From the NCBI GenBank assembly GCA_958009085.1, contig OY253685.1, forward strand, positions 1 to 64,000: 64,000 nt of DNA, in the 5' to 3' direction. A program made the position numbers and the translations under genes. The notes below the pieces were generated by a model that saw nothing but the letters and a program-made list of their open reading frames with translations, did not search any database and had not been told where the DNA came from. Source of the DNA: Protoeuglena noctilucae (taxonomy: Eukaryota). Below, one piece after another: positions 9,101 through 50,182 of this stretch. The first letter of the stretch is position 1. Each line of letters opens with the position of its first letter.

Positions 9101-9704
9101 ATCTCGTCCGCACGGCGCACTTGGGAGGCGTACGTGCGCTGGAAGGCGCTCTTCTCCGAGTTCAGGTCTTTGAACTGCAGAGCAGCCGTCTCCCCGAGCG
9201 CAGCGATCGTGTCGTGCGCGGCCTCGGCGGGGATAATGAGCTGCAGAGGCGGGACGGGGCGGGAGGACCGTGGGGTCGGAGTGGTCGCGGGGGAGGGCCT
9301 CGCGCGGCGTGGGATGGCACCGCGCACTCTACTCGACACGAACTCCGTCCGGAGCGACAGCCGGCAGCGCCAGGAACCGCTCTAGACCTCGGCCCAGCCC
9401 CAACAGGCTTGGCCGTGGCGCCGGGGGGGCGCTGTCGGCGATGAGCGACGCAAAACGGCCGCATCAGATGTCGTCGCAAGCGCCAGCGAGTGGAGCTGGC
9501 AGAATACGTGCCCGGGGCGGCCATCGTAGGGCGAAACGGGGGGGCGAGTCGCAAGCTCGCCGGGTGGGACCCGAGGGCGGAAGCTGAGCTGATGAGGCGC
9601 CTAAATGTCATTCAAGGCGGCGGCTCATGAAATGGGTGGCCGTCCTCGTCCCCGGAACCCACCTGCACTAGCTGCATCTCCTCCGAGCGCCACAGATCCA
9701 TCAT
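6172..9704 (-). CDS. VHA-a: V-type H+-ATPase V0 subunit a, 6 exons
   Basis: N-terminus [110 protein letters not shown]. Introns are GT-AG. Confidence 0.97.
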
Positions 9705-10105: not shown

Positions 10106-13556
<3,451 letters not shown>

Positions 13557-14437: not shown

Positions 14438-17400
14438 ATGATGGGGCCAGGGCTGGGTTCGGCCGGGCCTGGCGCCTTGCGGGCTCCGAGAAAGGCGGCC
14501 ACTTCATTCTTTGCCTTAGCTACACTGCTGACACTTCTCCGCGGGGCGTTCGCCGGTGAGGGCCGAGCGCGGGCTATGCAGGCGCATTGCCATTGACCTG
14601 CGCGCCGTCCCGCGAGCGCGCCCAGGCCCGCGGTGCCCCTCCCCCGCAGACTCGACGTTCACATCGTTGACGGTGTCCACGTGTCTGGCCCTGAAGACAG
14701 TCACGCTGTCTCCCGCGTTCGCCGGGGGGACGTCGGGCGGCACGAGCACCTTCACGGCGACGGTGGACCACGAGTGTTCGCTGTGGCAGCCGACCACGGA
14801 CGTGAACGGCAACTACACGATCACGTCTCCCTATTCGCTGTCGGCGTGGCTCACGTGGGCTTGCGTAGACCCGACCTGCGCGGTGGAGGTGGATCTGTAC
14901 GGGCCCAACCCCAACGGAGGGGCCGACATGGTCGTGGCCTCCTACCCGAGTTCATCGACCACGGTCACGGGCAACCAGACCAACTACCCCCCGTCAGGCC
15001 TGGCGCTGCAGACGGCGACGCAAGTGACGAGCACGCCCCCCACGTCCCCGCCCACCAGCAACCTCGTGGCTGTGGACGACGTCGTGACGCGGATCGACAT
15101 CCACAGCACCGTTTCTGGCGTCAAGACGACCTACACGCTCAACATCACCCGCCACGGAAGGTGCGAGCCGCGCAGGCGGGGCGCGCCGCTCGCAGCCAGG
15201 CCGCTGCGTGTGACGATGGTCGCTGACCAAACGGCTCTTTGTGCTCGGCAGGAGCTGGGACGACCTCTTGAGCAGCCTGGCGGTGCTGGACAGCTCGGGC
15301 GCGGCCTTCCCCACGACGCCGTACGCGTCGAGCGGCGTGCTGTACCAGGGGAGCTGCACGGCAGCTAACGGCACGTACGACAGCTCGGGGGTGACGTCGA
15401 CGACCGGGTTCAGTGCCACCGTGCTCAATTACGTCGTCGAGGTCCCCGACACCACCACAAGCGTCACGTGAGCGGGCGGCAGGAGCGCACGTGGCTCGCC
15501 GTCGCCACTGCGCCGCTCCCCTGAACGCCCCCCCGGTCGCCGCCCGCAGAGTCAAGGCTATCGGCGACACCATCGGCACGCTGAACGCCACGACGCTCTT
15601 CCAGCGCATCCTGATGTACTCGGACGCGACGGGCGCAGCCACGGGCTACTGCGGCAGCACGTGCCTGCACGGGTCGGACATCTACACGACGCCCGGGTGC
15701 AGCACCAGCTGCACCAACAACGTCACCTACTCCGGTCTCACGGCCACCTCGAGCACCCTGGCCGTGGCCCAGGGCGCGCTGGTCACGGTGAAGGTCCGCG
15801 TGGAGTCGCAGGCGTACCAGCCCCTGCAGACGTGCCCCAACACGACGTGCCCCATGTACAACAACAACGCGGCCTCGTACCGGACCTACACCATCCAGGT
15901 AAGGCAGCCGCCCGCCCGCTGCCGCCCGCGGCTGTCACCCGCCCCTCCCCTCACGCGACGTGCCTGCCCCGCACCCCCCGCAGATCCTGCGTCGGACCAA
16001 GAGCGCCAACGCGCAGCTGTCCGCGCTGGCCCTGACCCCCACCAGCACCGGGGACACGGCGCTGGCGCTGTCGCCGACGTTTGCGGGCGGCATGTACACC
16101 TACACGGCCCCGGCCTACTACCGGTCGTCGGCGCTCAAGTTCACGGCCACGGTGCCGGCGACGACGTTCCCCTACTCGGCCACGGACAACGTGAGCCGCG
16201 CGGCCATCACGGTGCAGGCCTACACGGACGGCACGTTCGCGACCACGTCGGGGTCGACGCTGACGCTGGTCAGCGGCACGCAGTCGACGTCGACGCTGCC
16301 CCTGGCGACGCCGACCGTGAGCGCCTCGGCGTCCACCTACCTGCGCGTGTCGGTGACGTCCGAGGACGGCAGCACCACCCACGCCTACCAGGTCACGGTG
16401 ACGCGTGCGGCGCCCAGCAGCGACTCGACGCTGTCGCAGATCCACCCGAGCGTCGGGTGGCTGGTGGCCGCGGCGCCCAGCGGCAGCTACCTGGCCGTGG
16501 TGCCCGCGTACCCCAAGGACGGCTACGGGGGGTCAGCCACCAACCCCGACAGCACGGCCACCGCGTACGCCTTCGCGGCGACGACCACCGCGTACCGACT
16601 GCGGTCGGACCACGGCATCCCCTACTACACGACGGTGATCAACACGGCGAACGGGGGCACGGCGGCCGACGCCATCACCATGACGGTGTCGCCGATGGGG
16701 GCGGCCACGGCGGGGGGCCAGGTGCTGTCGACGGCCACGGTCGGCGCCTACGACACGTGTGACCAGTACGGCGCCTGCACCAATACGGTGCTGGCGCCCT
16801 CGGCCGCGGCGGCGGCGTCCGGGACGGCGAGCGCGACCATCAGCATCCCCGCGTGCGCGTCGACCAACTGGCCGGTGCCGTGCACGACGCTGATCAAGAT
16901 CACCGTCTACGCCGAGAGCTACTCCCTCGACAACACCAAGACCACCACGTACTCCCTCTACGTGGACCGCGCCCCCCAGGTGCCCACGGACGACCAGTTC
17001 CAGGACCTGTACCAGATGCGCATCAACAACTTCGCGACGGAGATCAGCGGAGCCAGCGACCTGACGGGGGCGGCCGCGCAGTCCCCGACCGCGGCCTGCA
17101 GCAGCGGGGGCAACCTGACCACGGTGACGATCAAGGGCACGGGGGCCAACCTCTTCACGGCGGGGAGCAGCCTGCAGCTGTACCTGGAGGTGGACGCGGC
17201 CAAGTGGGCGGCGACGTGGGTGACGGCGAAGCAGACGGGCGTCAACAACCACAACAACGGGGGCTGGACGGCCGTGGCGACCGACTACTCGCAGATGCCC
17301 CGGCTGCTGTTCAACGTGTCCGTGTCGGGCGCCAGCACCCCGACGATCGCGCAGCAGTCGCTGCCGAGCACGGGGACGGGGCTGTACGGCAACTGCCCCG

Positions 17401-20400
17401 GCATGGCCGTGTGCAAGCAGGGGTGGTGCGTGGCCGACGCGACCGTGTCGGTGGCGGACCCGAAGGGGTCGGGGCTGCAGGAGTGCAGCAAGACCATCTC
17501 GCTGACGCAGCTGCTGACGGCGTCGGGGTCCTACAATGCCTCCGCCACCTCCACGGCCTCGCTGTCCGGGGGGGGCACGTCGGTCAAGGCCGTGCACGTG
17601 ACGGTCAACGCGGCGGGGACGACGGCCGTGGACGCGTGCAACGCGCAGGTGACCTTCACGGTCGCGTACGGGCAGATGAGCCTGCCGTCCTCGGCCGTGG
17701 GGCTCACGGAGGTGGGGTCGCGCGTGGCCACGGCGGGGGCGCTGACGCTCACGGGGAAGGACCAGTACGGCAACACGGTCACGGGCACGGACCGGGCCTA
17801 CGCCACGGGGCAGGTGGCGGCGGCCGTGTGTACGCCGCGGCAGGGGCTGACGGACAGCACGGGCACCCTGGCACGCGCTTTGGTGGGGGACACGTCGGCC
17901 TTCCCGACCGTGTCGGACGCCAGCACCACCAGCCCCTCCCCGGGCAAGGTGGCGGCGACCACCCCGCCGCGCATGGCGGTGGACCGCGACGGCAATGTGG
18001 TGGTGGCGTGGGTGGACGACTCGTCCCTGACGCTGCCGGCCGTGGTGAGCGGTCAGACCACCACCGCCAGCGTGACGGGCGCCGTGCAGGTCAAGCGGTA
18101 CTCGGCGGCCCTGAGCGCGTGGCAGTCCATGGGCGCCTTCGCGTGCCGCTCCAGTGACACGGGCGACTACACCCCCGTGGCCGTCAACGGATTCGACCTC
18201 TACTCCACGCGCGCCCCCGCGGGGTCCTCGGCCGGGTACCCGGACGTGGTGCTGGCGTACACGTGCAACTCGCTGGTGTTCGCGTACGAGCTCGACGCCT
18301 CGGGCAACACCGCCACGTGGGCGCCCATGAGCCCCCAGTCGGGCAACTGGTCGTCCTCCGGCCTCTACGGTGCGCTGTCCCCCACCTGCAGCCCCAGCTG
18401 CGGCGGCACGGCGCAGGTGCAGGTGTCGTTCGGCACCGATGTGGTGGTGTGCCACCAGGAGCGGTCGGGCACCACGGTGAGCAGCACCGACATCAGCCTC
18501 ATGCCGTCGTGCTACCAGTACAACAGCCTCAACAAGCAGTGGGCGGCGCTGGGCCCGCGCGGCGTCAACACGACCGTCTTCACCACCGCCGGCCTCACCT
18601 GGTCGTCCGGCACCAACGGCACGGTCACGGCCGTGGCGGTCATCACGGGGGCCAACGCGGTGCTGCTCACCTACAGCACCGTCTCGCAGACGTGGGGCAC
18701 GGCCTACACGTTCTCGTCCACCAGCTGGACGTCGGTGCAGCTCTACCGCACCCGCGAGGCCACCCCACGGCTGCTTCTCATGGGGTTCGCATACAACTCG
18801 GCCAACCCCACGCCCCCGTCGACCCCGGCCGTTTTCAGCGTCACCACGGGCACGCCCTCGGCCGTGACGCTCCCGCACTTCTCCTCCACCTCCCCCTGTG
18901 CCGCCACGGGGTGCACGTACGCGGGGGTGTCGAACCCGGTGCTGAGGGACGACGCGTCGGGGCGGCTGATGCTCTTCGCGCAGGATCAGGGCAACAGCGG
19001 GCAGGTGGTGATGCTGCGGGACCTGGTCGACAACGAGTGGGAGGAGATCCACAACATCTTCAACCCCGGCTCCGACCTGGCCGTGGGCGAGGCGGCCCCG
19101 ACCGGCACGGCCATCTACGTCATGGCGCGGGGGTCCTTCTCGGCCAACACCTCCCTCGACCAGCACCTCCTCGTCAAGCGGCTGGGGTTCGCCGACCGCA
19201 CCGAGTCCAGCTGCAGCTGCCCCCGGGGCTACACGTGCGCGGCCCCCAGCGCCAGCTTCACCGCCAACGGCGACGGCACCTACTCCGCCACCGCCGCCCT
19301 CACCTCGGACGGCTGGAACCTCGTGTTCGTGCGCGCCAGCACCACCGCGAGCGACCTGGACCTCTCCGCGCACCCCACGGTTCTGACGGCGTGGGCGGCC
19401 CCGTCCGGCGGGGGGAAGGCGGCCACGTACCCCTACCACGTGCGCGTGACGCCCGGCGCCTTCGGGCAGGGCTCCACGATCCTCATCCCCAGCACGGCCT
19501 TCACGATCCCGTCCCCCTGGCCCCAGTTCTACCTCCTCCCCCAGGACGCGTACGGCAACCTGCACCCGACCGGCTACAGCGTGGGCAGTGTGGCGCTGGC
19601 CTCGGTGCTCTACGACACGACGAACAGCAAGGGGCCGGAGGGGCCGGACCACACGGCGTGGAGCGCCACGGCGACCTACGAGGGGTCGGCGCTGGGCGCG
19701 TACTCGGCCATCACGGTGGCGGCCAACACGGCCGACCTGACGCAGGTGGTGGTGAAGAGCTACCGCGCGGCCATCTACAACGTCGGCATCACCGTCTCCG
19801 GCACCGCCCTCACCAGCCCACGTGAGTGCCTGCACATGGATTGTATGTCGCCGCCACTCATGGTCGTCACGCCCAGCCCCTCCGCCCCTCCCTTGCGTGC
19901 TGATCGATCCGTCTTCCCTCTCCCCGCAGAGAGCTTCCTCCTCCGCGCGGGTGAGATCTCCGACTGGTCCACCGCCACCTACTGGCCGTCAACCGCCAGC
20001 CCCGCGGGGTCGATTGTGGCAGGGGACCCCACGACCATCCTGGTGGACGCGGAGGACATCTGGCAGAACCCGATCAAGTACAACGATAACTCGGCCAAGC
20101 TGGCCCTGCACGCGTACATCCTCGACAGCGCGACCAGCCCCACGTGCCAGCCATCGGGGGGCGCCGTGACGTGCGCGGCCGTGTCGGCCACCGCCCTGGC
20201 CGCGTCGGTGGCGATGGACCCGAACGCCCGCACCAACGGGCGACTGGTGGTGTCGTTCACGGCCCCCACCGACGCCTCTAAGGCGTACGGCTTCCAGGTG
20301 GTGCTCACGGGGCTGACCAGCACCGACCTGGACGTCAACGGCGTGGCCAACACGGCCAAGATCGGGCGGGTGCTGCCGTGCGCCGGGTGCACGGCGAGCG

Positions 20401-23400
20401 GCGTGGGGAGCATGCTCAACGCCTCCAACCTCACCCAGCGCATGGTGCAGATCCAGGTCAACCCCAACGTGCCCGTGCCCGTGTCGACGCTGCTGGACTA
20501 CGCCACGTCGCAGGTGGCAGGCAAGGTGCAGTTCAAGCTGTCTCCCAGGGACGCGTACGGCAACTTCAGCCCCACCACGCGGTGGAAGCTCGTCGTGACC
20601 CCCACGGCCATCTCCGCCGACGCCGGCCCCGCCCCCGCGGGGGTGCCCGACACCAAGACGGCCATCGTGTCCCTGTCGCCCTTCACGGACGCCTCGGGGC
20701 AGGCCGTGGCGGGCACGCAGCTCTTCGACTTCACGCAGGCGGGGAACCAGAAGCTGGTGCGCATCGGCACCTACCAGCTCACCATCTTCCTCCAGAGCCT
20801 GACCGACCCCAGCTCGTATACGCAAACGTCCGTCACGGCCAACGGCGTCGTCATCCCCGTCCCCGCGGCCTCCTCGGGCGGCTCCGGCTCCACCCCCGCG
20901 CCCACCTCCACCCCGCCTCCCACCATGTCGCTGACCGTGGTGCCCGACCAGCCCAGCGGCAACTCGACCGTGTCGAGCCTGCCCGCGCTCATCCGCGTGG
21001 GGCAGCAGATCGTGCTGTACATCGGGGCGGTCGACCAGTACGGCAACCGCATCCGCACGGGCGGGCAGCTGGCCACGGTGGCCGTCAAGCTGGTGAACCT
21101 CAACGACCCGTCGGTGGTGGTGACCGCGTCGGTGGCCGACAGCGGGGACGGCAACTACATCGTGCAGTTCCAGCTGAGCCAGGCGGGCAAGTACCGCCTG
21201 ACGAGCTTCTTCAACGGCGTGCAGCAGCCGGCGCAGCAGGACGTGGAGGCCATCGCGGCGGGGCAGCCGTCGGGGCAGGTGGCGAGCGTGGTGTCGCTGC
21301 CGGCCGTCGGGGGCATCTACGTGGCGCAGGTCGACGAGCCCTTTACGGTGGCGCTGGTGGCGGACAAGACGCAGCCGCTGGCGCCCCAGGCAGCTTTGAC
21401 GGTCACGGCCACGCTCAAGTTCCAGGCCAATGGGGGCACGCAGGAGCAGGCGGTGGCGTTCGGGCAGATGAACGCGCAGGGGCGGTGGATGGCCACCGTC
21501 ACACCCCAGGCGTCGGGGGTCTACTCCATGGAGGTGTCCGTGGGGGGGTCGCCCGTCTTCGGGTCGCCCTTCGCCATCCAGGCCCAGAGCCGGCGCGCCC
21601 GGTGGCTGGCCGCGGCCAAGGCGGCGTCGGCGTCGACGACGTGGGTGCCGCCGACGATGGAGGTCGAGACGCTCGCGAGCAGCTCGCTGACCGCGGGGGA
21701 CACCCTCACGCTGTTCGTGAACCTGCGCGACAAGTTCGGCAACTCGCTCACGGTGCAGCCCCGCCAGGAGGCGCGCGTGTACCTGGTCCGGCAGTCCGAC
21801 AACACCATTCTGGACCTCGACCTGGCCACCTCGGACGCCACGGGCGGCTGGGGCTCCCCCTCCACGACCCACGCGGTCTTGCGCGCCCAGGCCACGCTCA
21901 CGGTCCCCGGCACCTACTCCCTCTACGCCTACTTCCACGAGCTCCGCGTCTGCAACCCCGGCAAGGCCGTCTCGTCTCTCGACGCCTCCAAGCTCCCCTG
22001 CCTGCCGGACATCACGGTGGCGGCGGGGGCGCTGGACCTGACCCAGACGACGCTGTTCGGGTCGGGGGTGGCGGACGGCACGGTCGGGGCCACCATGGAC
22101 GTCCGCATGCACCCCCGCGACGCCTACGGGAACATCCTGCCCGCCACGGCCGGGTCGGCGCTGTCGGCCAAGCTCACCGTCTACGGCCCCTTCGCCACGC
22201 TGGCGGCCGCGCAGGGCATCAACAAGGTCTCGGCATCCACGCTCACCGCGTCGCCCGTGGCCATGACGTACTCCTCCGCCGACCGCACCCTGGTCGCCCA
22301 GTACTCCGCCACGGGCGCGTCGGCGGTCGGCTACTACGTGGTGGACGTGGGGACGTACAACGCGAGCGGCACGCGGCTGGCGCAGGTGGGGTCGGACGTC
22401 GTCGTGCACCTGTCCCCGGGGCTGCCGTACTACAACGCCGGGACGCTCGCGGCGCCCTCGTGGGCCGCGGCCACGTCGACGTGCGCGGTCCAGGCGGCGA
22501 GCGTGTCGGCGGGGGAGCAGAACCAGCTGACGGTGCGGCTGCGGGACGCGCAGGGGGTGCCGACGACCTGTCGTGGGACGTGGACGTGGTGCAGGTCACC
22601 CCCTCGCGCGAGACGCTGTCGGTGCGGGCGGCCAACCTCACGGTTGCGCGGGTGTCCACGGACCTCAGCGCCTACACGGTGGCCTTCCAGGGTATGCAGG
22701 CGGGCACGCACACGCTGCAGCTGTGGGTGGGTGGCGTGCAGGCCACCGCCAACGGGTGCCCCGCGTCGGTCACCGTCACGGCCGCCCCCCCCGACCCCGC
22801 GTGGACCTTCGCGTACGGGGAGGCGCTCTCACGGGTCAAGGCGGGGGACACGGCGACCGTGTACGTGCGCCCGGTGGACCGCTTCGGCAACCAGGTCACC
22901 AGCAAGGCCCAGGTCGACGCGGTCGGCCTCACCTTCACCCTCGAGCGCCAAACGTACAGGGGCCTCCCCGCCGACCTCCCCGACTCGGCCCCCGCGTACG
23001 TGTGGCTGGCGGACCCCGCCGTCTACCAGGTGCAGTTCACGGCCAAGGTCGTGGGCCGACTGCAGCTGCGGGCCGAGCTGGGCGGCACTTCGCTGGGCAA
23101 CATGCCCGTCACGCCCGTCATGGTCCCCGGGGACCCGTACCTCCCCAACACGGTGGTGTTCGGGGGCGGCGTGCAGGCCGGGTCGGTGTCCGCGCAGGCG
23201 TCCTTCACCGTGGAGCTCCTGGATGCTTATCGGAACCCAGGCGTGGCCGCCGGGCAGCCCGTGTGGGTGGAGGTGGTGGCAGCGGACTCGGCCACGCGGT
23301 CGGCCATGCTCACCTCCAACAGCTCCCTCGTGGTGGCGCCCATCGTCACCGAGACCTTCCGCGGGTACTACAGCGTGCAGTACAGCGTGCCCGTGCAGGG

Positions 23401-26400
23401 CAACTACACGGTCACGGTGCTGTACGGCACGTCGGTGGTGCAGTCGTACTCGGTGCAGGTGGGGGACGGGTGCATCGGGCCCACCACCTCCGCGGGCGCC
23501 TGCGCCGTCAAGGACATCAACACGTACGTGCCCAGCGCGGCCAACTCAAAAGTGGACCCTGTGATGCGCGACACGGTGGCGGGGGTGCGGCAGGAGGAGG
23601 TGATCATGGCGGTGGACGAGGTGGGCGCGGGGTCGTCGCTGCAGGCGGGCGGCAGCGCCAGCTCGTTCGTGGCCGTCATGTGGCTAGACGACGGCGTGTC
23701 CACGGCCAACAGCCCCACCTACTCGGCCAAGGCCACCACGCCCCTCACCGTCACGCCCTCGAGCCCCCTGTACCTCCTCAACTACAACAACGGCACCTTC
23801 TCCCTCAACTACGCCCCCACCAAGGCCGGCAAGTACTTCATCGACCTCTTCGGCGCCGACGGCTCCACGCCCGTCTCCCTCCCCACCTCCGTCACGCCCA
23901 ACAGCAACCTCTCCTCCTACCCCCGCACCGTCGACGTCTTCCCCGCCGCCACCGACGCCACCAAGTCGACCCTCAGCGCCGCCACCCCGCTCCCCTCGGG
24001 GCTGGCGGCGGGGAAGGCCTTCGACATCCGCGTGACCCCCCGCGATGCGTACGGCAACGTGCAGACGGGGTTCGGGGACCACGTCATGGTCTTGCTCGAG
24101 GGGCAGTCGGGGCAGGCGACGGGGATCACGTTCGAGTACGACCTGTCCCGCACCCACGCCGACTACGCCGCCAAGGACTACGACTACAAGGCCACGGTGC
24201 CGGGGCTGCAGCAGGCGGGGCAGTGGCGCGTGCGGGTGTTCATGGTGGCGGCGGACGGGAGCCAGAAGCTGCTGGCGGACGGGCAGAACAAGGCGGCCGA
24301 CCAGACGGTGTTGGTGACGGCGGGGGCGGTCAGCCCGGGGGCGTCCTTTGTGCACGGCCCGGGGCTGCAGGGCGGCGTGGCGGGGCGGCAGCTGGAGGTG
24401 TTCGTGGAGGTGCGGGACCAGTACCTGAACCCCATTGACATCACGGGCATGGCCGCCACGCCCGCGCCCACCCCCGCGCCCACCGCCAGCGCCACCCCGG
24501 CGCCGACCGCCGCCTCCACGCCCGCCGCGACCGCTGCAACCCCTTCCGGCCCCTACCTCCCCGACTGCACGCTCACGCTGGTCCCCCGCGCCGCGGACGG
24601 CACGAGCCAGGCCCTGTCGGCGTGCGGGGGGTCGAGCGTCACGTGCATGGTGGTGTCGCAGCGGTGCCTCACGGGCGTGGCCGGGAGCTCCAACGTCGCC
24701 CGCATCCCCTTCACCCCGACGGCGGCGGGCACCTTCGACGTGCACGTGACGCTGACGTCCGGGGCCGTGGAGGCGCGCGGCAGCCCCGCGTCGGGCATGG
24801 TGGTGACAGCAGCAGTGCCGGACGTGGGGAAGAGCTCCGTGGACGCCACGACGCTGACGGGGTTCACGGTGGGCACCCGCGCCACCATCGTGGTGGACGT
24901 GCGCGACGCGTTCGGCAACGTGGTGTCGGCCAGCAGCAGCGTCAACCTGGTGGCGCAGGTGGTGTCCGCTGCCGGAGGGGCCACGTCGTTACCCGCCGCC
25001 GTGCAGGGGTCGCGGTTCGCCTTGACCTGGACCCCCAAGGCCGTGGGGTCCGCCACCCTCAACGTGACGATCGGTGGCGTGGCCATCACGGGGTCGGGTG
25101 CCAAGCTGACGGTGGCGCCGGGAGCCACGTCGGCATCGCAGAGCTACGTGCAGCGGCTGGACGGCGCGGACCTGAAGCTGGCGGCGGCAGGCGCGACGGT
25201 GTCTGCCGCCGTGTACGTGGTGGACGTGAACGGCAACCCCCAAGACCCCTCCCAGTCCGACACGGTGACGGTGTCGCTGACGTCCCCGACGGGCGGTCAG
25301 GGATCGGTCATCACGCCGACGGTGTCGGCCCCGCGCAAGGACGCGAGCGGCGCCGTGCTGAGCCCGACCAGCTACCTGATCCAGTTCAGCATCAACACGG
25401 TGGTGCGCCAGCCGGACGCCACCGTGTCGCCGTACACGCTGACGGTGCAGGTGAACGGGGCCAACGTGAAGGGCTCCCCCTTCAGCGTGTACCCGTACTC
25501 GTCGGTGGCATCGGGTGCGCAGTCGTACCTGGTGGACGGCACGACGGGCGCGAGGGTGACGGGCACCACGACGCTGACGGCGGGGCAGGCGTCGCACGTG
25601 ACGGTGCAGCTGGTGGACGCCAACGGCAACCAGACGGTTTACGACCCCACGCGGACGCAGCCGACGGTGACGGCCACGCTCTACGGCACGCTGGCCGACA
25701 CGCCCGGCAAGGGCGTGGTGTACTCGACCGAGGCGACCGTGGCGGTGCCGGCGGGGCAGGGCGGGGATCTGGCGGGGACCACGGCGACGGTCCCAGCGTC
25801 CAACAAAGTGACGGCCACGGACGACCGCAACGGGCGGTGGACGCTGACGCTGACGCCGCTGCAGACGGCGTCGCTGGTGCTGGTGGTGTCGGTGGGGGGG
25901 TCGGCCATCAACGGGGGCGCCTCCTACGCCGTGACGGTGGCCCCGGGGGTGGCAGACGTGACGCGGTTCACCCTGGCGCAGGCGTCGGGGTCCACCGCGC
26001 CCCTCGTGACGTCCGCGCTGGGGGCGGTGGCCGCGCCCGTGGCGGGGCAGCCCGCGTGGGCGGTGGTGCAGCCCCGCGACGGCCAGGGCAACCTCATCAC
26101 CGACGCCTCGGCCTTCACGGTGCTGGCCACCGTGTCGGTCACCACAGGGACACCCCTCGCAGGGTACACCACGCTCACCGCCGCGGCAGGCGACGTGTCG
26201 CTGTCGACCCAGACCGCCGCGGGCACCGGCGACGGCACCAACGTCCCCAGCGTGCTGTCGTGGCAGGCGGGGCAGGCGGTGCTCAAGTTCAAGCCCCCCG
26301 CCGCGTGCCGTGCGGGCACCACAGGGTGCCTGTCGCTGACGCTGCAGGTCAGCTTCAACGGGCAGGTCACGTCCGCGCCGCCCATCGCGCTCACCGTGGC

Positions 26401-29400
26401 GCCGGGGGCTGTGGCGGGGCTGGCGGTGTCGGGTCCGGGGTCGTACGGTGCCATCTTATCGGATGCATCAGCCGGGCTGACGGCCACGGTGGTGCCGGTG
26501 GACGCGTCCGGCAGCCCCGTGGACAACCTGTCGAGTTACCCCGCCGTGACCGTCACGTCGGCCAAGATCATGCTGGCGGACGGCACCGTCACGACGGCGG
26601 CGGCGGACGTGTCTGCGACGGTGACGGCCGCGGACGCCTCGTGCAAGTGCTACACGCTCACGTGGAAGGCGGCCAAGGCGGGCACGCTGTCGCTGACCCT
26701 CGAGTACGAAGCCACCTCTGGGATCAAGCCCACCGCCACGCTCACTGTGGCAATCGCATCGGCCCTGGGTGGCACGACCACGGGGCCCATCGACGCTGAC
26801 CTGGCGGAGATCGAGGGTGACCTGGGTGCCGAGGCCGGGCAGTCCGGGACCTTCCGCGTGGCTCTCTTTGCGCTGGCGGCCGGCACGTCGACCATCGCCG
26901 ACCCGGCCAGCACCAGCGGGGCGAAGCTGGCGTGCAGCGCGCTGGTGGGGCGCGCGCAGAAGCTGGCGGGTGGCTGCCGCGGCCCGCGCATCAACAGCAA
27001 GCAGACGAGCGTGACGGTGACGGCCACGCTGGACCAGACCACGGCGCTGACGGTGACGCAGGGGAACGACGGGATGCATTCCGTTGCTTACAAGCTGAAG
27101 TCCGCGGGGCAGCACTACACGAGCCTGCGCGTGACGGTGGGCACGGCAGCCCCCGCCAGCGTGCAGGGCTACAGCCAGGCGGCCATCCCCCGCGTGTACT
27201 CGGGCCCGCATGCCTCGTGGACCACGCTGCTCTACGACCCCGTGACCATGGCGGTGCTGCCGGCGACGCAGTCCACGGCGCCGGGGTACGTGGGCGTGCC
27301 CTTCACGGTCGACTACGTTTCCACCGACGCGTACGGCAACGCGGTGGACGGGCAGCTGCACGCACCGCTGGTCGCGCAGGTCAAGCTGACGCTGCCGGAC
27401 GGGTCCACGCAGGGCGTCGTGGCCGCCACGCCCTACACGTCCGCCGTGGCCCCGGGCGTGGCGGGGGTCACGGGCGCGCTGGCCCTGGGCAACCTGCCCC
27501 CCGCGCAGGTCACCGTGTCGCGGCTGCAGTACCGCCCCACGGCCCTCCACGTTTACTCCGTCTCCGGCTACCTCTCCACCAACACGTCCCAGTCGGTCGG
27601 TCGCTCCGTCAGCGTGGACGTCGGCCCGGGTCTCCCCTCCGTGGCCAAGTCGTCCGTCGCGGGCACGTCCGTCGAGTCCGCGCTGGCCGGCACCACCGTG
27701 CAGTTCACGGTCGCGCTGGCCGACGACGCCGGCACCCCCCTCTACAATTTGTCCGCTCCCCGCCAGCTCGTGTCGCAGCTGCAGGCGGCCCCGTCTGCCG
27801 TCAAGACCTCCCTCAGCTACGAGGCGCAGAAGCTGGTGGCCACGCCGGCGACGAACGTGCTCACGCAGGCGGTGGTGTCGGCCCAGCTCATCTACCCCGA
27901 CGGCACCAAAGTGACTGTACCGGTGTCGTACAACGCGTCCCTGAGTGCTTTCCAGGGCGCCCTCACGTCTCAGAAGGCAGGCACGGCGTGGCTGGACCTG
28001 CAGGTGTTCGGGCAGGACTTCCTCCCCGTGGGGGCGTCCGGCTCCGTGGTGGTGCAGCCCCTGTCGCTGAGCGGGGCGACGTCGTTTGAGGCGGGGCCAG
28101 CCACGGGGACCATGGGCACCCTGGCGGCCAACAAGGCCGCGGGGATGTACGTGCAGGCGCGGGACCGGTACGGCAACGACATCCAGGCGGGTGGTCTGTC
28201 CTTCCAGGCCTCCGCCACCCAGGTCATCGGCAATCGCGTGGCCGGGGCCGCCAACCCCTCGCTGCTCACCATGCAGCCGGCTTCGGTCACGCTGGCGTCG
28301 ACGGACCTGGCGGACGGGCAGTACCTGCTCTCCGTGACCATCCCGATCACGGGCAGCTTCAACCTCACCGTGCAGCGGGGGTCGGAGCAGCTGTCGCCCT
28401 CCGCCACGCCCTACATTGTCGACACGGGGTCGGGGGCCATGGCGGGCGCGCAGTCGACCGTCGGGTGCCCCGCGACGCTAGGGTCCGGGGAGCAGTGCGC
28501 CGTGCCTGCCACTGCCCCGTTGCCCAACGGCGCCGTGGTCCCCGGCCTGACGCTGCTGGCGGGCGTGCCGGCGCTGGTGGTGGTGAGCGCGCGCGACGCG
28601 GCGCAGGTCCCCACGCTGGGCACCGCCGAGGACATCGAGGTGTATTTCTCCGCGGGGTCAGGAGAGACGGAGCTGGCGAGTGCCAAGTCTCTCATGGACA
28701 CGACCACCACGCCCGCCAGCCACGTGGGTCAGTTCCAGGCCACCTTCACGCCGCTTAAGGCTGGGCCGCTGGTGCTGACGGTGCGGCAGCGGGGCACCAC
28801 CTGGCGCGTGACGGGCACGGTGGTGCCGGGCGCTATGAGCAACACGCAGTCGCAGGTGGCGGTGGCCACGTCCCCATCCGAGCCGGTCTACAGCACGGGC
28901 CGGCAGCCGCAGCGGGTCACAGTGGCGGCCTACGACGCCAACGGCAACCGCGTCACCAGCGCCGCGCGGGTCCCCGACACAGTGTATGTGGAGCTGCGCC
29001 CGGACGACGGCTCTTCGTCCGGCCGCGTGTTCAGCGCCGCCTCTGCTCTGGGTAATGGGTACTTTGCGATGGCCTACGAGACGCAGGTACCCGTGGTGTG
29101 CCACGTGTTCGGTCGGATCGGGGAGCAGGGCACCGGGTTCGGCAACGTGCCGCTGCAGGTGGTGGCGGGCCCGGCCGTGCTGTCCAACACGGTGGTGCAG
29201 GGGTCGGACTTCGCCGTCAATCAGCTGTCGTCCACGACCGCGGGGCAGGCGTCGACCATGTACGTGAGCCTGCGGGACATGTTCAACAACGTGCGCATGC
29301 AGGGGAGCGATGTGTACGGCCACAACGATGCCTCCGTGCCGCCCTCGCCCTTCCTCCCCTCGGCCTCCATGGTCCTCCGCATCACGGGCGTCCGATCCGG

Positions 29401-32400
29401 CGCTGCCGTCGACGTCCCCTTCACCGTCACCTTCAACAGCGCCGCCGTCGTGGCCGCGTGCGTGAAGGCATCCGACGGGTCGGCCGCCGCCAAGCTCACG
29501 TGCGACAGCAAGCTGGGCCTCTACCAGGTGGACTTCACGCCCACGACGGCGGGGTCCCTGCGCTTCGACATGTACCTCAAGGGCAGCCAGCTGCTCGCCC
29601 CGGGGGGCAGCTCCTTCGCCATGACGGTGTTGGCCGGGGCGCCCTCGGGTGCGGCCGCGGGGGCCAAGGGCAGCGTCAGCCGCGTGTACTCGATTGGCCT
29701 CGACGCGGCGCTGCAGGGCGACCCCAACAACTACTTCGACGTGCAAGTGCTCGACCAGTACGGCAACCCGGTGGGGGTGCTGCCGTCGGGCTGGGACATC
29801 CAGACCACGCTCACGCTGCAGGGGTCGGGGCCGGACCTGTCGAAGGTCAACACGAAGCCGGGGCTGGTCGACGTCACCACCTCCACCTTCCGCGTCTTCG
29901 TCTCCTTCCCCACCAACACGACCGGGGCGCGCTACAACGTGACGGTGACGGTTCAGTTCACCAAGGACGGCAACCCGCAGGCGAACGGGTACGTGTGCCG
30001 CGCGGCCACGGACGTGTGCAGCCAGGGGTACAGCGTGGGGGTGTTTGCGGCCAACAGCGGGTCGGGCGTGCCGGCCAACTCGGTCGTCACAGACCAGATC
30101 GGCAACATCCTCACGCCGGGCGGCACGCCGCTCTCCGCCGTGGTGGGCGTGCCCGTGCAGATGAAGGTCATCGTCAGGGACGCCAACCTGGTCCCCACGG
30201 CCTCGTCGGTCGGCCTCACGTCCGCGTGGCTCGACTTCCCCACTGTGTCCCCCGCCTCTTTGGACCTGCGCGTCCCCGCCCTCACCAACGGCAGCGTCTT
30301 CACCTTCTCCTGGACCTCGGATGTCAGGGGCAGGCAGGTGGTGTACCTCACCGCCAACGGCCGCCAGCCCATCGGCCAGGACAGCGCCACGGGGGCGGGC
30401 GACGCGGGCATGTTCGTGGTGGAGTGGGCGGCGGAAGCGGCGACGAGCCAGGCGCAGTCGAGCGTGGCGCTGTCCGGGCCCCCCGCGTTGGGCGGCACGG
30501 TGGCGCAGGTGGCGGCCGGGGCGCCCTTGCACGTGGTGGTGCAGCCGCGCGACCAGTACGGCAACGCCCAGCCCTACCAGGCCACGGTGGGGCCGCGCCC
30601 CTTCACGGCGTCCCTCGTCAACGCGGCCACCAAGACCCCCACCGCCTGCCAGATCGCCCCCCAGCAGTCGTCCGGGTGGTACGACGTCATCTGCACCGCC
30701 ACCTCGGTCGGCACTTACTCTCTGCAAGTCCTCAACCAGGGGGCAGCGGCTTCTGCTTCTGATGCCCTCGCGCGCGTCCTCGGCCGCACCACCCTCGCCG
30801 TCACGGTGGTCGCGGGGCCCTACTCCCCCGCCGCCACCACGCTCGTCCCGGACGTGCGCACGGCCGCAGCACTGCCCGCCCGCGCCGGCGCTGCCTCCTC
30901 CGTCGTCGTGGTGCCCCTCGACGCTTACGGCAACGCCGTCACCACCTACGTCGCCCCGGCGCTGCAGCTGACGGCCGCGTCCCTCCCCTCGGGTGCGGAC
31001 GTCTCTGCCGCCCTCGACGCGTCCGTGCTGCCCTCTGCGGGGGGTCAGTTCTCCGCCACCTTCTTCGCCAACGCGTCCGGGTCGTACCTGCTCACCGTCA
31101 AGGAGGCCTCCTCCCCCGTGGTCATCGTGCGGCCTTTCTTGGTCACCGTCACGTCCGGTGCCGTCAGCGTGGCGTCCACGGTTCTGTCCGGGGCGGGGCT
31201 GGCGGGGGCCAAGGCCTCGTCGGACGCGGTGGTGTTCGTGCAGCTCTACGACAGCAGCCACAACCCCATGACGGACCCAACGAGCGTCCCAGCCATCACC
31301 GCCCAGATCAGCGCCCCCGGGCAGGCGCCCTCGGCCGACCAGTCCGCCCTCACCTACGCGGTCAGCACCGCGCAGGTGCCCGTGCAGGGCATCGCCACCC
31401 TCACCTACCGCGTCTCCGTGCCCGGCAGCTACGGCCTGCACATCTCGGTGGCAGGGGTCGAGGCGGCCGGGTCGCCCTTCGCCATCGCAGTGTCCAAGGC
31501 AGACGCCCCCGCGGTGGTCACCGGCTACCCCGCCTTCCGCCCCGACGGCGCATCCCTCGCGGTGCTCTTTGATGTCCCCACCAACCGCGGGGCGGCACCC
31601 GGCGCCTCCCCCACCAACGACTGCGCGACGATCTTCGACGCTGCCACCCTGGCCACGCTGGGGTCGCTGGCGGCCGGCAACTCCACCGTCTACGACTCCT
31701 CCTGCACCTGGCCCACCCCGCAGCAGCTCGTGGTGCTCCTCGGCACCGCTCCCACCCTGCGCCCCACGTCCCTCGACCCCACGGCCGCGGTGGCATTCAA
31801 GACAGGCGCCCTCACCAACAGCGCCGGCAACTCGTTCGCTGTCACGGGGCAGTACAAGGTGCTCGCCCCGTCCTCCACCCCCCAGCCGCGCGTCCGCATC
31901 AGCGCCCCCACCGTCATCGGTGTGTGCGACGACCTGGTGGTGGACGCGTCTGGGTCGAGGGGTGGGCTCGGGAGAGGGCTCACGTACGTGTTCGCTGTGC
32001 AGGGGTCCACGACGGCCGACACCACCAGCGCCGGCCAGGCCCTGCAGCTCACCGGCTCGGGGCAGGTCAACGCGTCGGCCGCCACGTCTGGGGTGTTCAC
32101 GGTCCCCTCCTCGTACCTCCGCGCCGGCGGCATCTACACGGTGACCGTGACCGTCACCAACTTCTTCGGCGCCGCCTCCCAGGCCCAGGGCAGCGTCACC
32201 GTCACGCGCCTGTCGGTTCCCGCCCCCCGTGTGGCCGTGAGGGGCGGCCTGTCTTCGCTCTCCATCGACCAGAGCCAGCCATTCGTGGTGGCCGCGGACG
32301 TGACGGCCATCGACCCGTCGCAGTGCGCCGGCACGCAGTTCACGAGCCTGTCCGCCTCGGCCACCAAGGCCATGACGTTCCAGTGGCAGCTCACCTCGGG

Positions 32401-35400
32401 CCCCGCCATCACCGCAGCCTCCTTCCCCAACCCCACCGCCTTCGCCGCCTACCAGGCGTCGCTGTCCTCCCGCGTCCTCAGCCTCCCCGGCAACGTGCTG
32501 CAGGCGGGGCAGACGTACACGTTCACCTTCACGGCCGCCCCCTCCACGGCCGGCATGGGCAGCTACCAGGGGCAGACGGCCGTCACCATCGCCGTCACCT
32601 CCACCGCCATCCGCGCGCGCATCCTGGGCGGAGACGCCACGCTGCCCGCCGGGCTCCCCTTCAACGTCACCGCCGCCCCCGTCGACCCGGACGGCGCGCG
32701 TGACCCGGTCACAGGCGCCGCCACCCCCTTCACCTTCCAGTGGACCTGCGAGACGGTCGCGCCCGATGCGTCCGGGGTCTTGCAGACCACCGCCTCGTCG
32801 TGCTTCGGGTCCCCCCAGCAGGACTCGCTGGTGCTGCTGCCCCAGGCGACCGTGGCAGTCACGGCCGCCAACGCCGCGCTGCTCAAGGCCGGGTCGCAGT
32901 ACCGCTTCACGGCGCAGATTGCCAAGGAGCCCCTCGGCACCGGGCGCACCGCCTCCGTGTCTGTGCTGCGATCCATCGCGGCCGCAGTCACCGGCACCGC
33001 CCCCACGCACCAGGTGGCGATCCTCGCCCCAGCCAACCCGGAGATCTCCCCCGCTTCGGACCTCCTCCTCTTCGCCCGGGCAATCCCCCTCACCTCCGCG
33101 GGTGTGCCTGACCCCCCCAACGCCACCTTCACCTGGACGCTGGCGGCCGGGTCCGGTCCCATCGCGAGCGCCTCCACGGCCGCGTCGCTGTCGAGCGGGG
33201 TGCCCGGTCGCCGACTGCGGGTGCCCGCCGGGCAGCTGCAGGGCGGGCAGACGTACACCTTCCACTTAGCGGGTGGGGGCGTGGCGGCAGGGACGTCTGC
33301 CACCGTGTCGCTGACCGTGAGCCAGGCGCCGTGGGGCGGGGTGCTGTCGGTGACCACCGCGGCCACAGCCACAAGTGGGGCGTACGCGGAGGGGACGGCG
33401 GTGTTCTCCGCGAGTCTGGACAACTGGCAGGCGGCGCAGGGGGACCTGCCGCTCACGTACCAGTTCTCCGCCATTGACGCCGCGGGGGTGGCGGGGACCG
33501 GGACAACCCCCGCGTCGCTGACGGCGGCGCAGGTGGCGGCGCTGCGGGCGGCCAACAAGGAGCGGCTGCTGGTGCCGACGCCCACCGAGGTGTCCTCCGC
33601 GCAGTTCGTGTTGCCCGCCGGCACCTGGGTGGTGGTGGGGACGGTGACCAACGGGTGGGGCGCCACGACGCAGTTGCTGTTCACTGACAAGTACCTGCTA
33701 GTCGCGAGGGCGTCGGGGACGGGCCTGGCGCCCCGCCGGCGCCTGCACGCCACGTCCGGTCCCCTGACGGACGACGTGGGCCTTGCCAACGCGGCCAATG
33801 CGGAGTTGGATGCGACATTGGAGCCCTACATCGTGGCGGGGCAGCTGGACCGGGCGCTGCAGTACATGGGAGTGTACGCGGCCAAGTACGCGGCACCGAC
33901 CAACGCGGGGGCCTCCCCCGTGCCTGGCTGTTTAGGAACGGTGTCTCTGGCCACGGCCACCGAGCGCGTCGCCAAGCACTTGCTCACGATCGTGCAGGCG
34001 AGGAATGGGTGGGGGGGTCTGTTTATCACATGCGATTGTCCACCTGCCATGCCCTGCTGCCGTTGCACTTTCCGGACTCATGCTGCCGCACAGAACAAGC
34101 GAGCATGATGCTTCCCCATGTGCCCATCTCTCACCTATCACCCCCCCTCTCTTTCCGCAGACGCTGTCTTATTCCCAGGGTGTGCACGAGGAGGCTATGT
34201 GCGCGGCGGCAGACCTGACGCAGTACCCGCAAGAGCTGACCTCGGCAGCAGTGACAGCGGTGGCCACGGCCGCGGGGGCGCTGGTGAGCAGCGGGGTGGC
34301 GTCCTCCACCCCCCTCACCTCCCGCTCCCTTGAGTGCACCGCGCGCGCCCTCAACAACCTGGCGGCCGCCGCCACCTCCGCGTGCGGTGCGGGGCCGAAT
34401 GGGGCGGCAGACATCACCACGCTGTCCGCGGTCGCCTCCTCCCTCACGCGCGTGTTGCCGCTGATGGCCGACGCCCTGGTGGAGACGGATCCCCCCGTGT
34501 CGCACGCGTACGCACTGGTCGCGCTGTCGCTTTCCAAGGACCTTGCGGATGACTCTGGCACGGTCAGGCTGGCGCCCGCGGCCACGCTGGGGGCGAGGGG
34601 GCTGGCGATGGCGGCGGTGGGGGCGGGGACGGTGGGGGAGGTGGTGTCGCTGTCGGCGATGGTGGACGCGTCGGCATCCGACCCGACCATCGCGGCGCTG
34701 CTGCGTGGGGCCGGGTCGCCCTCGGCCGCGCAAGTGACGGTGCTGCAGCGGCAGATGGTGCCGCCGCCCCTGTCCACCACCTCCACGGCAGGCGCGGTGC
34801 CCCAGGCAGTGGCACTCGCACCTTTAACCCAGACATCGGTGACGCTTAGCCTGGGACCCGGGGGGGTGGCAGCCGTGGCAGCCAAGGGAACGTCGCGCCG
34901 CCGTCTGTCCCAGGCGTTCACTGCCGCTATTGCCTACCTCCACAACGGCGCATTGGCCACCCTTGGGCTGGGCACGGACACTGTGACGGGGGACGCGGTC
35001 ACCACCACCTACGCCTCGCTGACGCCCGTGCCAGACACGTCGCTCAGGTCAGTGTCGACTGTCAGTAACTGCTGCAGCAGGGTTAGCCAGGCTGTTTAAA
35101 GTAGATCACAATATATATATAATCTCATTTAACAGCACTCCTCACCTTTCCCCCTCTCCTCCCATGCAGTGACTCTACGCGCAACGTGGGCACGCTCGTG
35201 TTTGCCGCCAAGGCCGTCCCCACCACCGTCGCCAGCACCCCCAAGTCCACCGGCACGCCTGCGCCGTCCGACACACCCGCGGCCACGGTGAGTGGCGGAT
35301 GCGATGCGATGTGCGTTGCCTGATAGCTGTGTGCAATGGAGAGTTGCATAGGGTGGCACCACTCGGTGTGCCACTAATTGTCATCACATCACAAGCAACC

Positions 35401-35973
35401 TAACCCACCCCTTCTTCCCCCCGCAGCCCTCGTCGGGCGGATCGGTCAACGCCGCCGTGCAGTGGCTGTCGACGCACGCGGGTGCCGTGGCGGGCATCGC
35501 GGTCGCACTTGCCGTGGTGCTGGCGGCTGCCACGGCCGCGTTCGTGGTCGTGCAGCGTCGCCGCCGCCGTGTGCGGGTGGTGCCGGAGCCGTCGCCGCCC
35601 TCCAAGCCAGAGAGCATGGAGGTGAGGGTGGGTGGGGTGGTTGCTGTCACTCTCATTCGTGCGCAGCACTGCCCTCTTGACAGTGCCCCTCTGTTTCAAT
35701 GCCTCGCGGTGCCACTACTGCCCTTGCCTCACTGCCTGGCTGTGTCGATGCCCAACTGTGTCATTACTGCCTCGTTACCGTCTCACCCCCCCTCCCCTTC
35801 ACTCAAACACGCAGAGCAAGGCGGTGGTGGCGGTGGCGGTGGCGAAGAAGGAAAGCAAGGAGGTGTCGCTGGTGGGCAACGAGGACATGTACCTGCCTGG
35901 GACGCCTAAGGGGGCGAGGAGGCCGCGGGCATTCGAGTACTCGGACTCGGACTCGGACAACGACTATGTGTGA
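14438..35973 (+). CDS. Giant (~6,700 aa) type I membrane protein: signal peptide, cadherin-like beta-sandwiches, putative beta-propeller, ~25 filamin/Ig-like repeats, PKD/REJ-like region, single TM; frameshift near 22567
   Basis: Signal-like FFALATLLTLLRGAFA; motifs such as ANAQLSALAL...LSPTF; about 25 D-x-(Y/F/N)-G-N-type repeats with GSPF motifs; APTVIGVCDDLVVDASGS and later REJ-like segments (~31900-33690); TM AVAGIAVALAVVLAAATAAFVVV followed by RRRRR; short acidic tail. Approximate introns: 14556-14649, 15161-15250, 15467-15549, 15899-15983, 19822-19929, 33998-34160 (GC), 35048-35169, 35288-35425, 35622-~35814. Confidence 0.85.
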
Positions 35974-49814: not shown

Positions 49815-50182
49815 GCACGGGAGGGTTTGAAACATGGGCAATCGGCATGAGAGTGGCAGGCGTGGTGGTGACATGCATGGGCCCATGCGCGCCGATGTGG
49901 CCAGGCGTGTGCGGGGGCGGCGGCTGGTTGCAAGGCGCTGCCTGGGTCGCGCGTTTGCGGAGCGGCGTTTGAATCACGCTCTGGGGTCAGTCTATACGCA
50001 TGTTTTTAGCTGATCAACAGTGGCTTAGCCACTGGGCTAACGGCGCGTTTCTGCTTACGCGATTGTCTCCCGTGACACCCTGTCCGAGTGTGGAATGCAC
50101 GGCTACTACGTTACTACGCTATCGCTGCTGCTCGTCATGCCAATCTCAGCGCCAACAAAGCATCGCCCTCTCTGCGCCCCAA

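Follow-up and report, generated by a model that had tools for sequence, protein, structure and literature searches.

A predicted giant surface protein of Protoeuglena noctilucae uniting filamin-type immunoglobulin-like repeats with a REJ module

In this study, a stretch of 64,000 nucleotides (nt) from Protoeuglena noctilucae (GenBank assembly GCA_958009085.1, contig OY253685.1, positions 1 to 64,000 of the forward strand), which we call the window, was investigated, with attention to one giant locus on its + strand between 14438 and 35973. The explanation that we consider best, and to which we give somewhat more belief than doubt, is that the locus is one gene of 10 exons whose product would be a type I membrane protein of about 6,800 amino acids (aa), a rod of the Filamin-REJ(-GPS) kind that likely serves in adhesion or recognition at the cell surface, and that the single break in its reading frame is a sequence error or very recent. 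From the N-terminus to the C-terminus, such a protein would consist of a signal peptide, four beta-rich modules, a Cys-containing stretch, a propeller-like region, some 30 or more immunoglobulin-like (Ig) domains with two linkers, a REJ module, a GAIN-like region, a transmembrane (TM) helix and a tail. The first-pass annotation, made from the letters of the DNA, had proposed a giant single-pass surface protein combining an Ig-repeat rod with a polycystin-type REJ block, and this architecture holds, as indicated by the Pfam matches and the one C-terminal TM helix. The modules are ordinary ones; their combination and size are undescribed as far as our searches show, yet not unique to this genome.

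Coding evidence and gene model

The base composition of the window is about 70% G+C, and between 16.0 and 33.9 kb the coding frame of the + strand displays a third-position GC of 0.86-1.00. Two overlapping stop-free frames were observed on this strand, 15903..23564 (2,553 codons) and 20282..34108 (4,608 codons), and the longest stop-free run was counted at 4,572 codons, whereas no run above 692 codons arose when these bases were shuffled 200 times. Since the third-position bias is accompanied by a stop-free run far above that of the shuffles, the giant locus is genuine coding sequence.

The gene model comprises 10 exons and nine introns and is based on splice signals, frame continuity and collinearity with P0005, an ortholog of 7,061 aa that is collinear with the locus across exons 2-10. 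Its borders, 14438 and 35973, are those that had been given at first, and the predicted product is 6,819 aa long, counting one X at the frame break; the former estimate of about 6,700 aa had captured the giant size, with a figure that was somewhat low. The introns measure 82-193 nt, with GT-AG borders in eight of the nine and GC-AG in the remaining one. Exon 1 (14438..14555), placed by sequence and splice phase, contains the start codon and encodes 39 aa that resemble a signal peptide. Exon 2 (14650..15160), which encodes the N-terminal beta-rich module 1, is collinear with P0005 residues 2-151, while exons 3 (15252-15467) and 4 (15550-15898), separated by an intron of 82 nt and with GT-AG introns, encode module 2 (15252..15898) and are collinear with P0005 residues 150-337. 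Exon 5 (15984..19821) contains modules 3 and 4, the Cys-containing stretch, the propeller-like region and the first Ig-like repeats, and is recognized by a Pfam PF12733 match and by 47% identity to P0005 in a tblastn comparison. The intron that follows it (19822..19929; 108 nt, GT-AG) is in frame and stop-free, and its 36 codons are missing from P0005. Exon 6 (19930..33997; 14,068 nt), supported by stop-free frames and codon bias, carries the Ig-repeat array, the linkers, the REJ module and the frame break; it had been proposed as a single exon of about 14 kb with exactly these borders, and the borders stand, though the exon is not one open frame, as the frame shifts between 22550 and 22568. 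After the 163-nt GC-AG intron (33998..34160), exons 7 (34161-35047) and 8 (35170-35287) encode the GAIN-like juxtamembrane region (34161..35287), which is collinear with P0005. Exon 9 (35427..35621) encodes the TM helix (~35478-35552), followed by an Arg run, as obtained from the translation, a hydropathy scan and the alignment with the TM helix of P0005, and exon 10 (35815..35973) encodes the end of a cytosolic tail of 75 aa, its translation displaying an acidic Ser cluster at 35935-35970 and the stop codon at 35971-35973. All of these features lie on the + strand.

Further evidence for the 3' part of the model was obtained from P0004, a sequence of 1,799 aa from a 5,445-nt jgi contig, which is 100% identical to the window protein over 762 aa. 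The spliced junction of exons 6 and 7 is present in P0004, which confirms the GC-AG intron, and the contig looks like a transcript, suggesting expression and splicing for no less than the final 5.4 kb of the gene. It had been stated that transcripts splitting the locus into several genes would speak against the giant protein; P0004, although partial (5,445 nt), is spliced as a single gene predicts, while a real frame break would split the translation. P0004 also departs from the window frame after a GCC-rich run (~34370, exon 7), which amounts to a 2-nt difference, and P0005 agrees there with the frame of the window. Indel errors or polymorphisms do occur in GC-rich material here.

Modules of the predicted protein

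The Ig-like array, situated at 19968..31462 (+) and outlined by Pfam, by our own profile and by alignment, accounts for most of this protein. Pfam Filamin (PF00630) matched two pieces with E values of 9.3e-61 and 4.6e-15, and Ig_GEX2_N (PF23616) matched with an E value of 4.6e-36, scoring 123.6 bits in 22565-33997 and 31 bits in 15903-22568, against a cut-off of 27. A profile built from the protein itself detected 32 repeat matches protein-wide, 24 units of the array were aligned, and 22 strict D-x(1,2)-G-N motifs were counted across the two long open reading frame (ORF) pieces, in keeping with the roughly 25 DxYGN-type repeats that had been reported. The 24 aligned units share 9-24% identity with the first unit, the majority of them lacking a Cys pair, and at the DNA level the repeats are alike only in patches of 40-54 nt around the motif, with 62-77% identity, so the strong divergence noticed earlier is evident. 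Because of this low identity among the repeats in both protein and DNA, the array would be old rather than the product of a recent expansion.

When the 24-unit profile was compared with the PDB, matches were obtained to the gelation factor of Dictyostelium (2.6e-8), the invasin-like adhesin FdeC of E. coli (4.8e-8), filamin-C (1.9e-7), an S-layer protein, and FUS1p of Chlamydomonas (9qs0; 4.2e-5), and the repeats also matched PDB 1wlh (1.7e-5); PDB sequence searches with two further Ig stretches gave no match. Going by these profile matches, the repeats are placed in the filamin/GEX2/FUS1 class of Ig domains, and they also resemble invasin-type domains. The earlier description of bacterial-adhesin-like modules is thus upheld as regards the invasin resemblance (FdeC), and was too narrow in view of the filamin/GEX2/FUS1 class and the spliceosomal introns. 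The array is interrupted by a Pro/Thr/Ala-rich linker followed by a Cys-containing stretch (24456..24534, +; Tandem Repeats Finder and translation) and by a second, shorter Pro/Thr-rich linker (20888..20924, +; Tandem Repeats Finder), in agreement with the Cys-containing linkers first proposed. The protein as a whole contains 40 N-x-S/T sites and 22% Ser+Thr.

The REJ module is located at 32363..33676 (+), where Pfam PF02010 matched with an E value of 3.7e-29 and 102 bits against a cut-off of 25, covering profile positions 11-406 of 452, and the REJ-like block seen at first is accordingly a clear Pfam match; a PDB sequence search with the REJ region returned only chance-level matches (E >= 0.076). 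Between REJ and the TM helix lie about 400 residues. Within them, the short exon 35170-35287 encodes the string RNVGTLVFAAK (35180-35212), which appears to be the remnant of a GPS site, about 40 residues ahead of the TM helix, and a similar string is found in P0005. At the equivalent position, shortly before the TM helix, seven more distant homologs display a canonical GPS, CxCxH(L/T)TDF. RNVGTLVFAAK has neither cysteines nor His and carries Val at the nucleophile position, and from what is understood of GPS autoproteolysis we presume that no cleavage takes place. The juxtamembrane region looks like a GAIN region that has lost the residues for GPS cleavage. The evidence for the GAIN fold, drawn from AlphaFold2, Foldseek and Atlas, is weak though threefold: for the P0005 counterpart, AlphaFold2 gave a model with a helical half and then strands, five of the six top Foldseek matches of this model are GAIN structures of adhesion G-protein-coupled receptors (GPCRs), with a best E value of 1.8e-3, and in Atlas the nearest cluster of window exon 7 is GAIN subdomain A at 0.83, under the 0.9 level.

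The hydropathy scan supports a single C-terminal TM helix. Residues 4545-4563 were flagged by the same scan and were not taken as a TM helix, being a Gly/Pro-containing strand within the Ig array. The one TM helix and the short tail ending in YSDSDSDNDYV agree with what had been read originally, and the motif PRAF-x-YSDSDSD is common to the window protein and P0005. The acidic, Ser-containing end of the tail could act as an acidic-cluster sorting signal.

At the other end of the protein, residues 1-39 resemble a signal peptide, as had been claimed, with a basic stretch, a hydrophobic core and an A-x-A end; this was judged by eye, the stretch lying below the threshold of the hydropathy scan. 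The four N-terminal modules that follow are beta-rich and 138-192 aa long, each of them terminating in a similar short motif. Module 3 (within 15981-16589) matches the Cadherin-like beta-sandwich family PF12733 with an E value of 7.5e-6 and 26.7 bits against a cut-off of 24.2, and hhalign comparisons among the four modules disclosed no significant likeness (best probability 20%); of the several cadherin-like motifs first proposed, one is therefore retained, in one module out of four. A PDB sequence search with the N-terminal 1,266 aa gave no match. The Cys-containing stretch sits between module 4 and a beta-propeller-like region of about 430-470 aa (17901..19301, +), for which AlphaFold2 produced an all-beta model of mean pLDDT 47.8. 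When this model was searched with Foldseek against the PDB, 487 of at least 500 matches had E <= 1e-3, and nearly all of those listed are beta-propellers, suggesting, as a low-confidence lead, a propeller-like domain of unassigned type. An Atlas search with 17703-19652 was uninformative (best score 0.77). The propeller-like region, the GAIN-like region with its degenerate GPS and the frame break are features that the first-pass annotation did not include.

Frame break and alternative explanations

At 22550..22568 (+) the coding frame slips one base backwards, beside a run of five G (22553-22557), as located by codon bias, the reading frames and ortholog alignment. The flanks of the break map to positions that adjoin each other in P0005 and P0003, both of which are uninterrupted and only two residues longer there, leaving no space for an intron; a tiny intron at this place was rejected on this ground. 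Programmed frameshifting was also rejected, as nothing was found in its favour. Past the break, 4,262 codons are stop-free with an unchanged codon bias (third-position GC ~0.95), and because of this the break would be a sequence error or very young; either of these is likelier than an old pseudogene. P0005 additionally harbors, at residues 2500-2653, about 150 extra residues without counterpart in the window (22508-22568), just upstream of the break, which may represent a domain insertion or, in the P0005 model, a retained intron.

Several observations weigh against reading the locus as one intact gene for an adhesion or recognition rod. The break may be real, as the ORF 15960..23564 (P0154; 2,534 aa, GTG start, with about 330 out-of-frame residues at its end) is stored as an identical protein on nine contigs, the longest of them 374,099 nt. 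Three of the four N-terminal modules, modules 1 and 2 (exons 2 to 4) among them, have no family assignment, with no Pfam match at E <= 10. Both AlphaFold2 models are of low confidence, that of the juxtamembrane region (mean pLDDT 41.8), which was made for the P0005 counterpart and not for the window protein, as well as that of the propeller-like region (47.8). No GAIN structure was matched by Foldseek at E <= 0.001, the TM-scores being 0.16-0.25, and hhalign of the juxtamembrane region against the seven GPS-bearing homologs found nothing (probability 4.6%). The Pfam check suggested at the outset, which recovered Filamin, REJ and one Cadherin-like match, returned no GAIN or GPS match at E <= 10, either in the exons of the window or in the P0005 counterpart. 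Finally, the proposed function is read from the types of domains.

The alternative that touches the gene itself most directly is that of a broken allele or young pseudogene, in which the frameshift is real, translation stops at 23564 after about 2,556 proper and about 330 out-of-frame residues, and the Ig array, REJ, the TM helix and the tail are never made; only a truncated, secreted N-terminal piece would then be produced, and the downstream modules would be lost. The lack of intron space at the frame change and the identity of P0154 on nine contigs, out-of-frame tail included, are what such an allele would display. However, the nine contigs may simply repeat a single assembly, the break adjoins the G5 run, the 2-nt indel of P0004 shows that such errors occur elsewhere in this material, the 4,262 downstream codons are stop-free at a third-position GC of ~0.95, and the downstream part recurs in the contig of P0004, which is spliced and transcript-like; we hold a broken allele to be doubtful, and still worth serious attention. 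The same break could be taken as the border between two neighbouring genes, one for a secreted N-terminal protein and one for a separate membrane protein starting past the break. This is very improbable, as P0005 and P0003 run through the site unbroken, the break falls within one Ig repeat, and past it there is neither a start codon with a signal peptide nor intergenic sequence, the coding bias running on without a gap. Even less credible is a bacterial adhesin gene, present by contamination or recent transfer. Bacteria commonly carry Cadherin-like beta-sandwich and invasin-like Ig domains, the repeat profile matched FdeC, and one weak match was found among bacterial genomes. Against it stand nine spliceosomal introns, a codon bias matching the one seen in the adjoining V-ATPase and kinesin genes, and the absence of NCBIfam matches (0 for six pieces). 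When the N-terminal 639 aa were searched for in bacterial and archaeal genomes, one of 12 pattern matches was confirmed, a locus in a Micromonosporaceae metagenome-assembled genome (L001, 738-2411) which, as its matched 63 aa are 38% identical and its 558-aa ORF has no related Pfam domain, was rejected as evidence of bacterial origin; the likeness probably arose by chance or is very distant.

Two further alternatives accept the gene as modelled and concern what its product does. A receptor specifically for gamete recognition is suggested by the joining of GEX2/FUS1-type Ig domains (Ig_GEX2_N at 4.6e-36, and a PDB match of the repeat profile to FUS1p) with REJ, both being module types of fertilisation proteins. 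The top templates, 1wlh, 4e9l and an S-layer protein, are of the same kinds as those reported for FUS1 and GEX2 in the accessible text of bioRxiv 2021.09.03.458930, and passages of PMC4700764 and bioRxiv 10.64898/2026.10.13.757955 tie REJ proteins of sea urchin, mammals, Ectocarpus and Cryptosporidium to the recognition between sperm and egg. The ectodomains of FUS1 and GEX2, however, consist of seven Ig-like domains only, in contrast to about 30 plus other modules here, and the Ig domains are equally near to cytoskeletal filamin and to bacterial adhesins; this specific role is rather unlikely. We assign a similarly low probability to a coat or glycocalyx protein, that is, a mucin-like glycosylated rod on the cell or cilium whose part is protective or anti-adhesive and not that of a receptor. 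FMG1B, the coat protein of the Chlamydomonas cilium, is described in the accessible part of bioRxiv 2024.09.28.615573 as membrane-anchored, with 34 Ig-like repeats of ~110 aa and low self-similarity, and such a rod would fit the 32 repeat matches found here, whose aligned units share 9-24% identity with the first one, together with the 22% Ser+Thr and the 40 N-x-S/T sites. Yet the same text gives FMG1B a conserved disulfide in each repeat and a multi-helix membrane domain at its end, with no REJ module mentioned in that part, whereas most of the 24 units here lack a Cys pair and there is one TM helix.

Adhesion or recognition, either between cells (gametes included) or between cell and substrate, is the most likely and most economical role to be inferred for the protein, and gamete recognition and an FMG1B-like coat can be regarded as specific versions of it, which the sequence does not separate. 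Under the reading of one intact gene, the protein would project from the membrane as a rod of perhaps 100 nm or more, an estimate based on the length of about 4 nm per Ig domain. Its distal modules, cadherin-like and propeller-like, may contact a partner or a glycan, the Ig chain would serve as a spacer or elastic tether, and the REJ/GAIN-like stalk would be the anchoring unit, comparable to that of polycystin-1/REJ proteins and adhesion GPCRs. Since there is neither a channel part nor a cleavable GPS, working in the manner of polycystin-1 would be excluded, and any signal would have to pass through the single TM helix and the tail, or through a partner protein.

A bolder proposal, which we put forward as quite improbable, is that the Filamin-REJ proteins form an unrecognised, widespread family of protist receptors that joins a GEX2/FUS1-type Ig array to a REJ-GAIN stalk, and that this giant member is a mating or cell-contact receptor sensing pull or contact. 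If this were true, the gamete adhesion of plants and algae would be linked with the polycystin/REJ branch of animal fertilisation proteins. REJ and GEX2/FUS1 proteins have been studied in separate lineages, as separate fertilisation or mechanosensory molecules, and here both module types are found in one polypeptide. In a tractable alga with such a gene, the role of a REJ/GAIN-like stalk that has no polycystin channel could be studied, as could the question of whether this family acts in mating, adhesion or surface coating. The locus also carries a warning for annotation, as one frame break together with prokaryote-style ORF calling has cut a 6,800-aa protein into pieces of at most 2,534 aa. 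By such calling, P0154, a fragment of a eukaryotic giant gene, became a database protein.

With regard to the surroundings of the giant gene, a gene for V-ATPase subunit a is situated at 6175-9180 on the - strand (PF01496, E 2.9e-107 for one exon), and a kinesin gene at 10790-13553 on the + strand, with its motor domain split over at least two exons. The neighbouring genes are split into small exons, as had been pointed out when the region was called intron-dense, and the host of the locus is a GC-rich, intron-bearing eukaryote. Ankyrin-repeat exons were also observed at 57323-57730 (- strand), a tandem repeat of 4.9 copies of a 30-nt unit (97% match) at 38797-38943, and a (CACAG)n run of about 16 copies at 45341-45420. 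The interval 50000-52000 is C-rich, with a strongly negative GC skew (-0.34), and its frames are of low complexity and rich in Pro, without a clear gene. Neither Rfam nor tRNA scanning of the window gave a match.

Relatives and known systems

When the REJ region was compared with the protein library, 463 matches were obtained at E <= 1e-3, 75 at <= 1e-10 and nine at <= 1e-30. Of 151 homologs retrieved, 56 were surveyed with Pfam, 22 of them taken at E <= 1e-3 and 34 at E <= 1e-5. Filamin and REJ occur together in 19 of the 56, GPS in 13, and all three in P0025, P0028 and P0047, while a PKD channel or PLAT domain was found in none. The Filamin+REJ proteins P0009, P0010, P0012 and P0013 likewise have a TM helix near the C-terminus. 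Because 19 of the 56 surveyed homologs carry it, the Filamin+REJ architecture is a family trait, and the Filamin-REJ(-GPS) surface proteins appear, as far as our searches show, to be a widespread and unstudied family. P0005, which is 47-51% identical to the window protein over most of its length and has the TM helix and tail motif in common with it, would be, together with the window protein, one of the giants of this family, most other members being 1,100-4,800 aa long.

The system had been presented as an undescribed one, and to the extent that no characterised full-length ortholog and, in the paper library searched, no publication uniting "REJ domain" with filamin were found, the description stands; the 19 homologs show that it is not unique. 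P0003, P0004 and P0153 are nameless in their sources, and the library of P0005, the one full-length relative obtained, holds no names. Among the literature on the REJ domain in algae, the accessible passages of PMC4700764 and bioRxiv 10.64898/2026.10.13.757955 do not contain the Filamin-REJ architecture, the REJ-related passages seen in PMC6019070 concern Hydra genes, and no such protein appeared by title or abstract among the papers listed for receptor for egg jelly and Chlamydomonas.

Comparatively, the closest systems by domain order are the unnamed Filamin-REJ(-GPS) proteins P0005, P0003, P0153, P0025, P0028 and P0047, in which the order is identical; P0025, P0028 and P0047 retain a canonical GPS, which the window protein does not. 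Sea urchin suREJ1, mammalian PKDREJ and polycystin-1 resemble it in their large ectodomain, followed by a membrane-proximal REJ, a region of about 400 aa at the GAIN/GPS position and then the membrane, and suREJ1 is also single-pass. In proteins with a GPS, the cleavage site is His-Leu-Thr/Ser just ahead of the first TM helix. In contrast to these three, the window protein has lost the GPS residues, lacks PLAT, the 11-TM/channel part (no Pfam match to PLAT or PKD_channel) and the head of lectin, EGF and PKD repeats, and carries a head of filamin-type Ig domains instead; it may work like the polycystin-1/PKDREJ group and, with REJ present and GPS, PLAT and multiple TM helices absent, is not a member of it. 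Another REJ-module membrane protein of an alga, Esi0130_0068 of Ectocarpus male gametes, differs in its 1,427 aa, its GPS, its six to seven TM helices with a polycystin-channel signature and the lack of an Ig array, as given in the accessible part of PMC4700764.

The likeness to filamin and to the gelation factor of Dictyostelium lies in the fold and sequence signature of the repeats. Since a signal-peptide-like start and a C-terminal TM helix are present, unlike in filamin, the repeats would lie outside the cell, and no Pfam match to the N-terminal actin-binding CH domains of the cytosolic filamins was found in the window protein. FMG1B is similar, in a comparison made by description only, as a giant membrane-anchored chain of at least about 30 Ig-like repeats, and differs in the Cys pairs, the membrane domain and the REJ module, as weighed above. 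FUS1 of Chlamydomonas and GEX2 of plants share with the window protein the type I single-pass layout and Ig domains of the Ig_GEX2_N and Filamin class, with the PDB templates 1wlh and 4e9l. Their ectodomain of seven Ig-like domains is set against about 30 Ig-like domains together with N-terminal modules, a propeller-like region, REJ and a GAIN-like stalk, suggesting that the giant protein of P. noctilucae works like the FUS1/GEX2 family, whose Ig type it has, without being a member of it.

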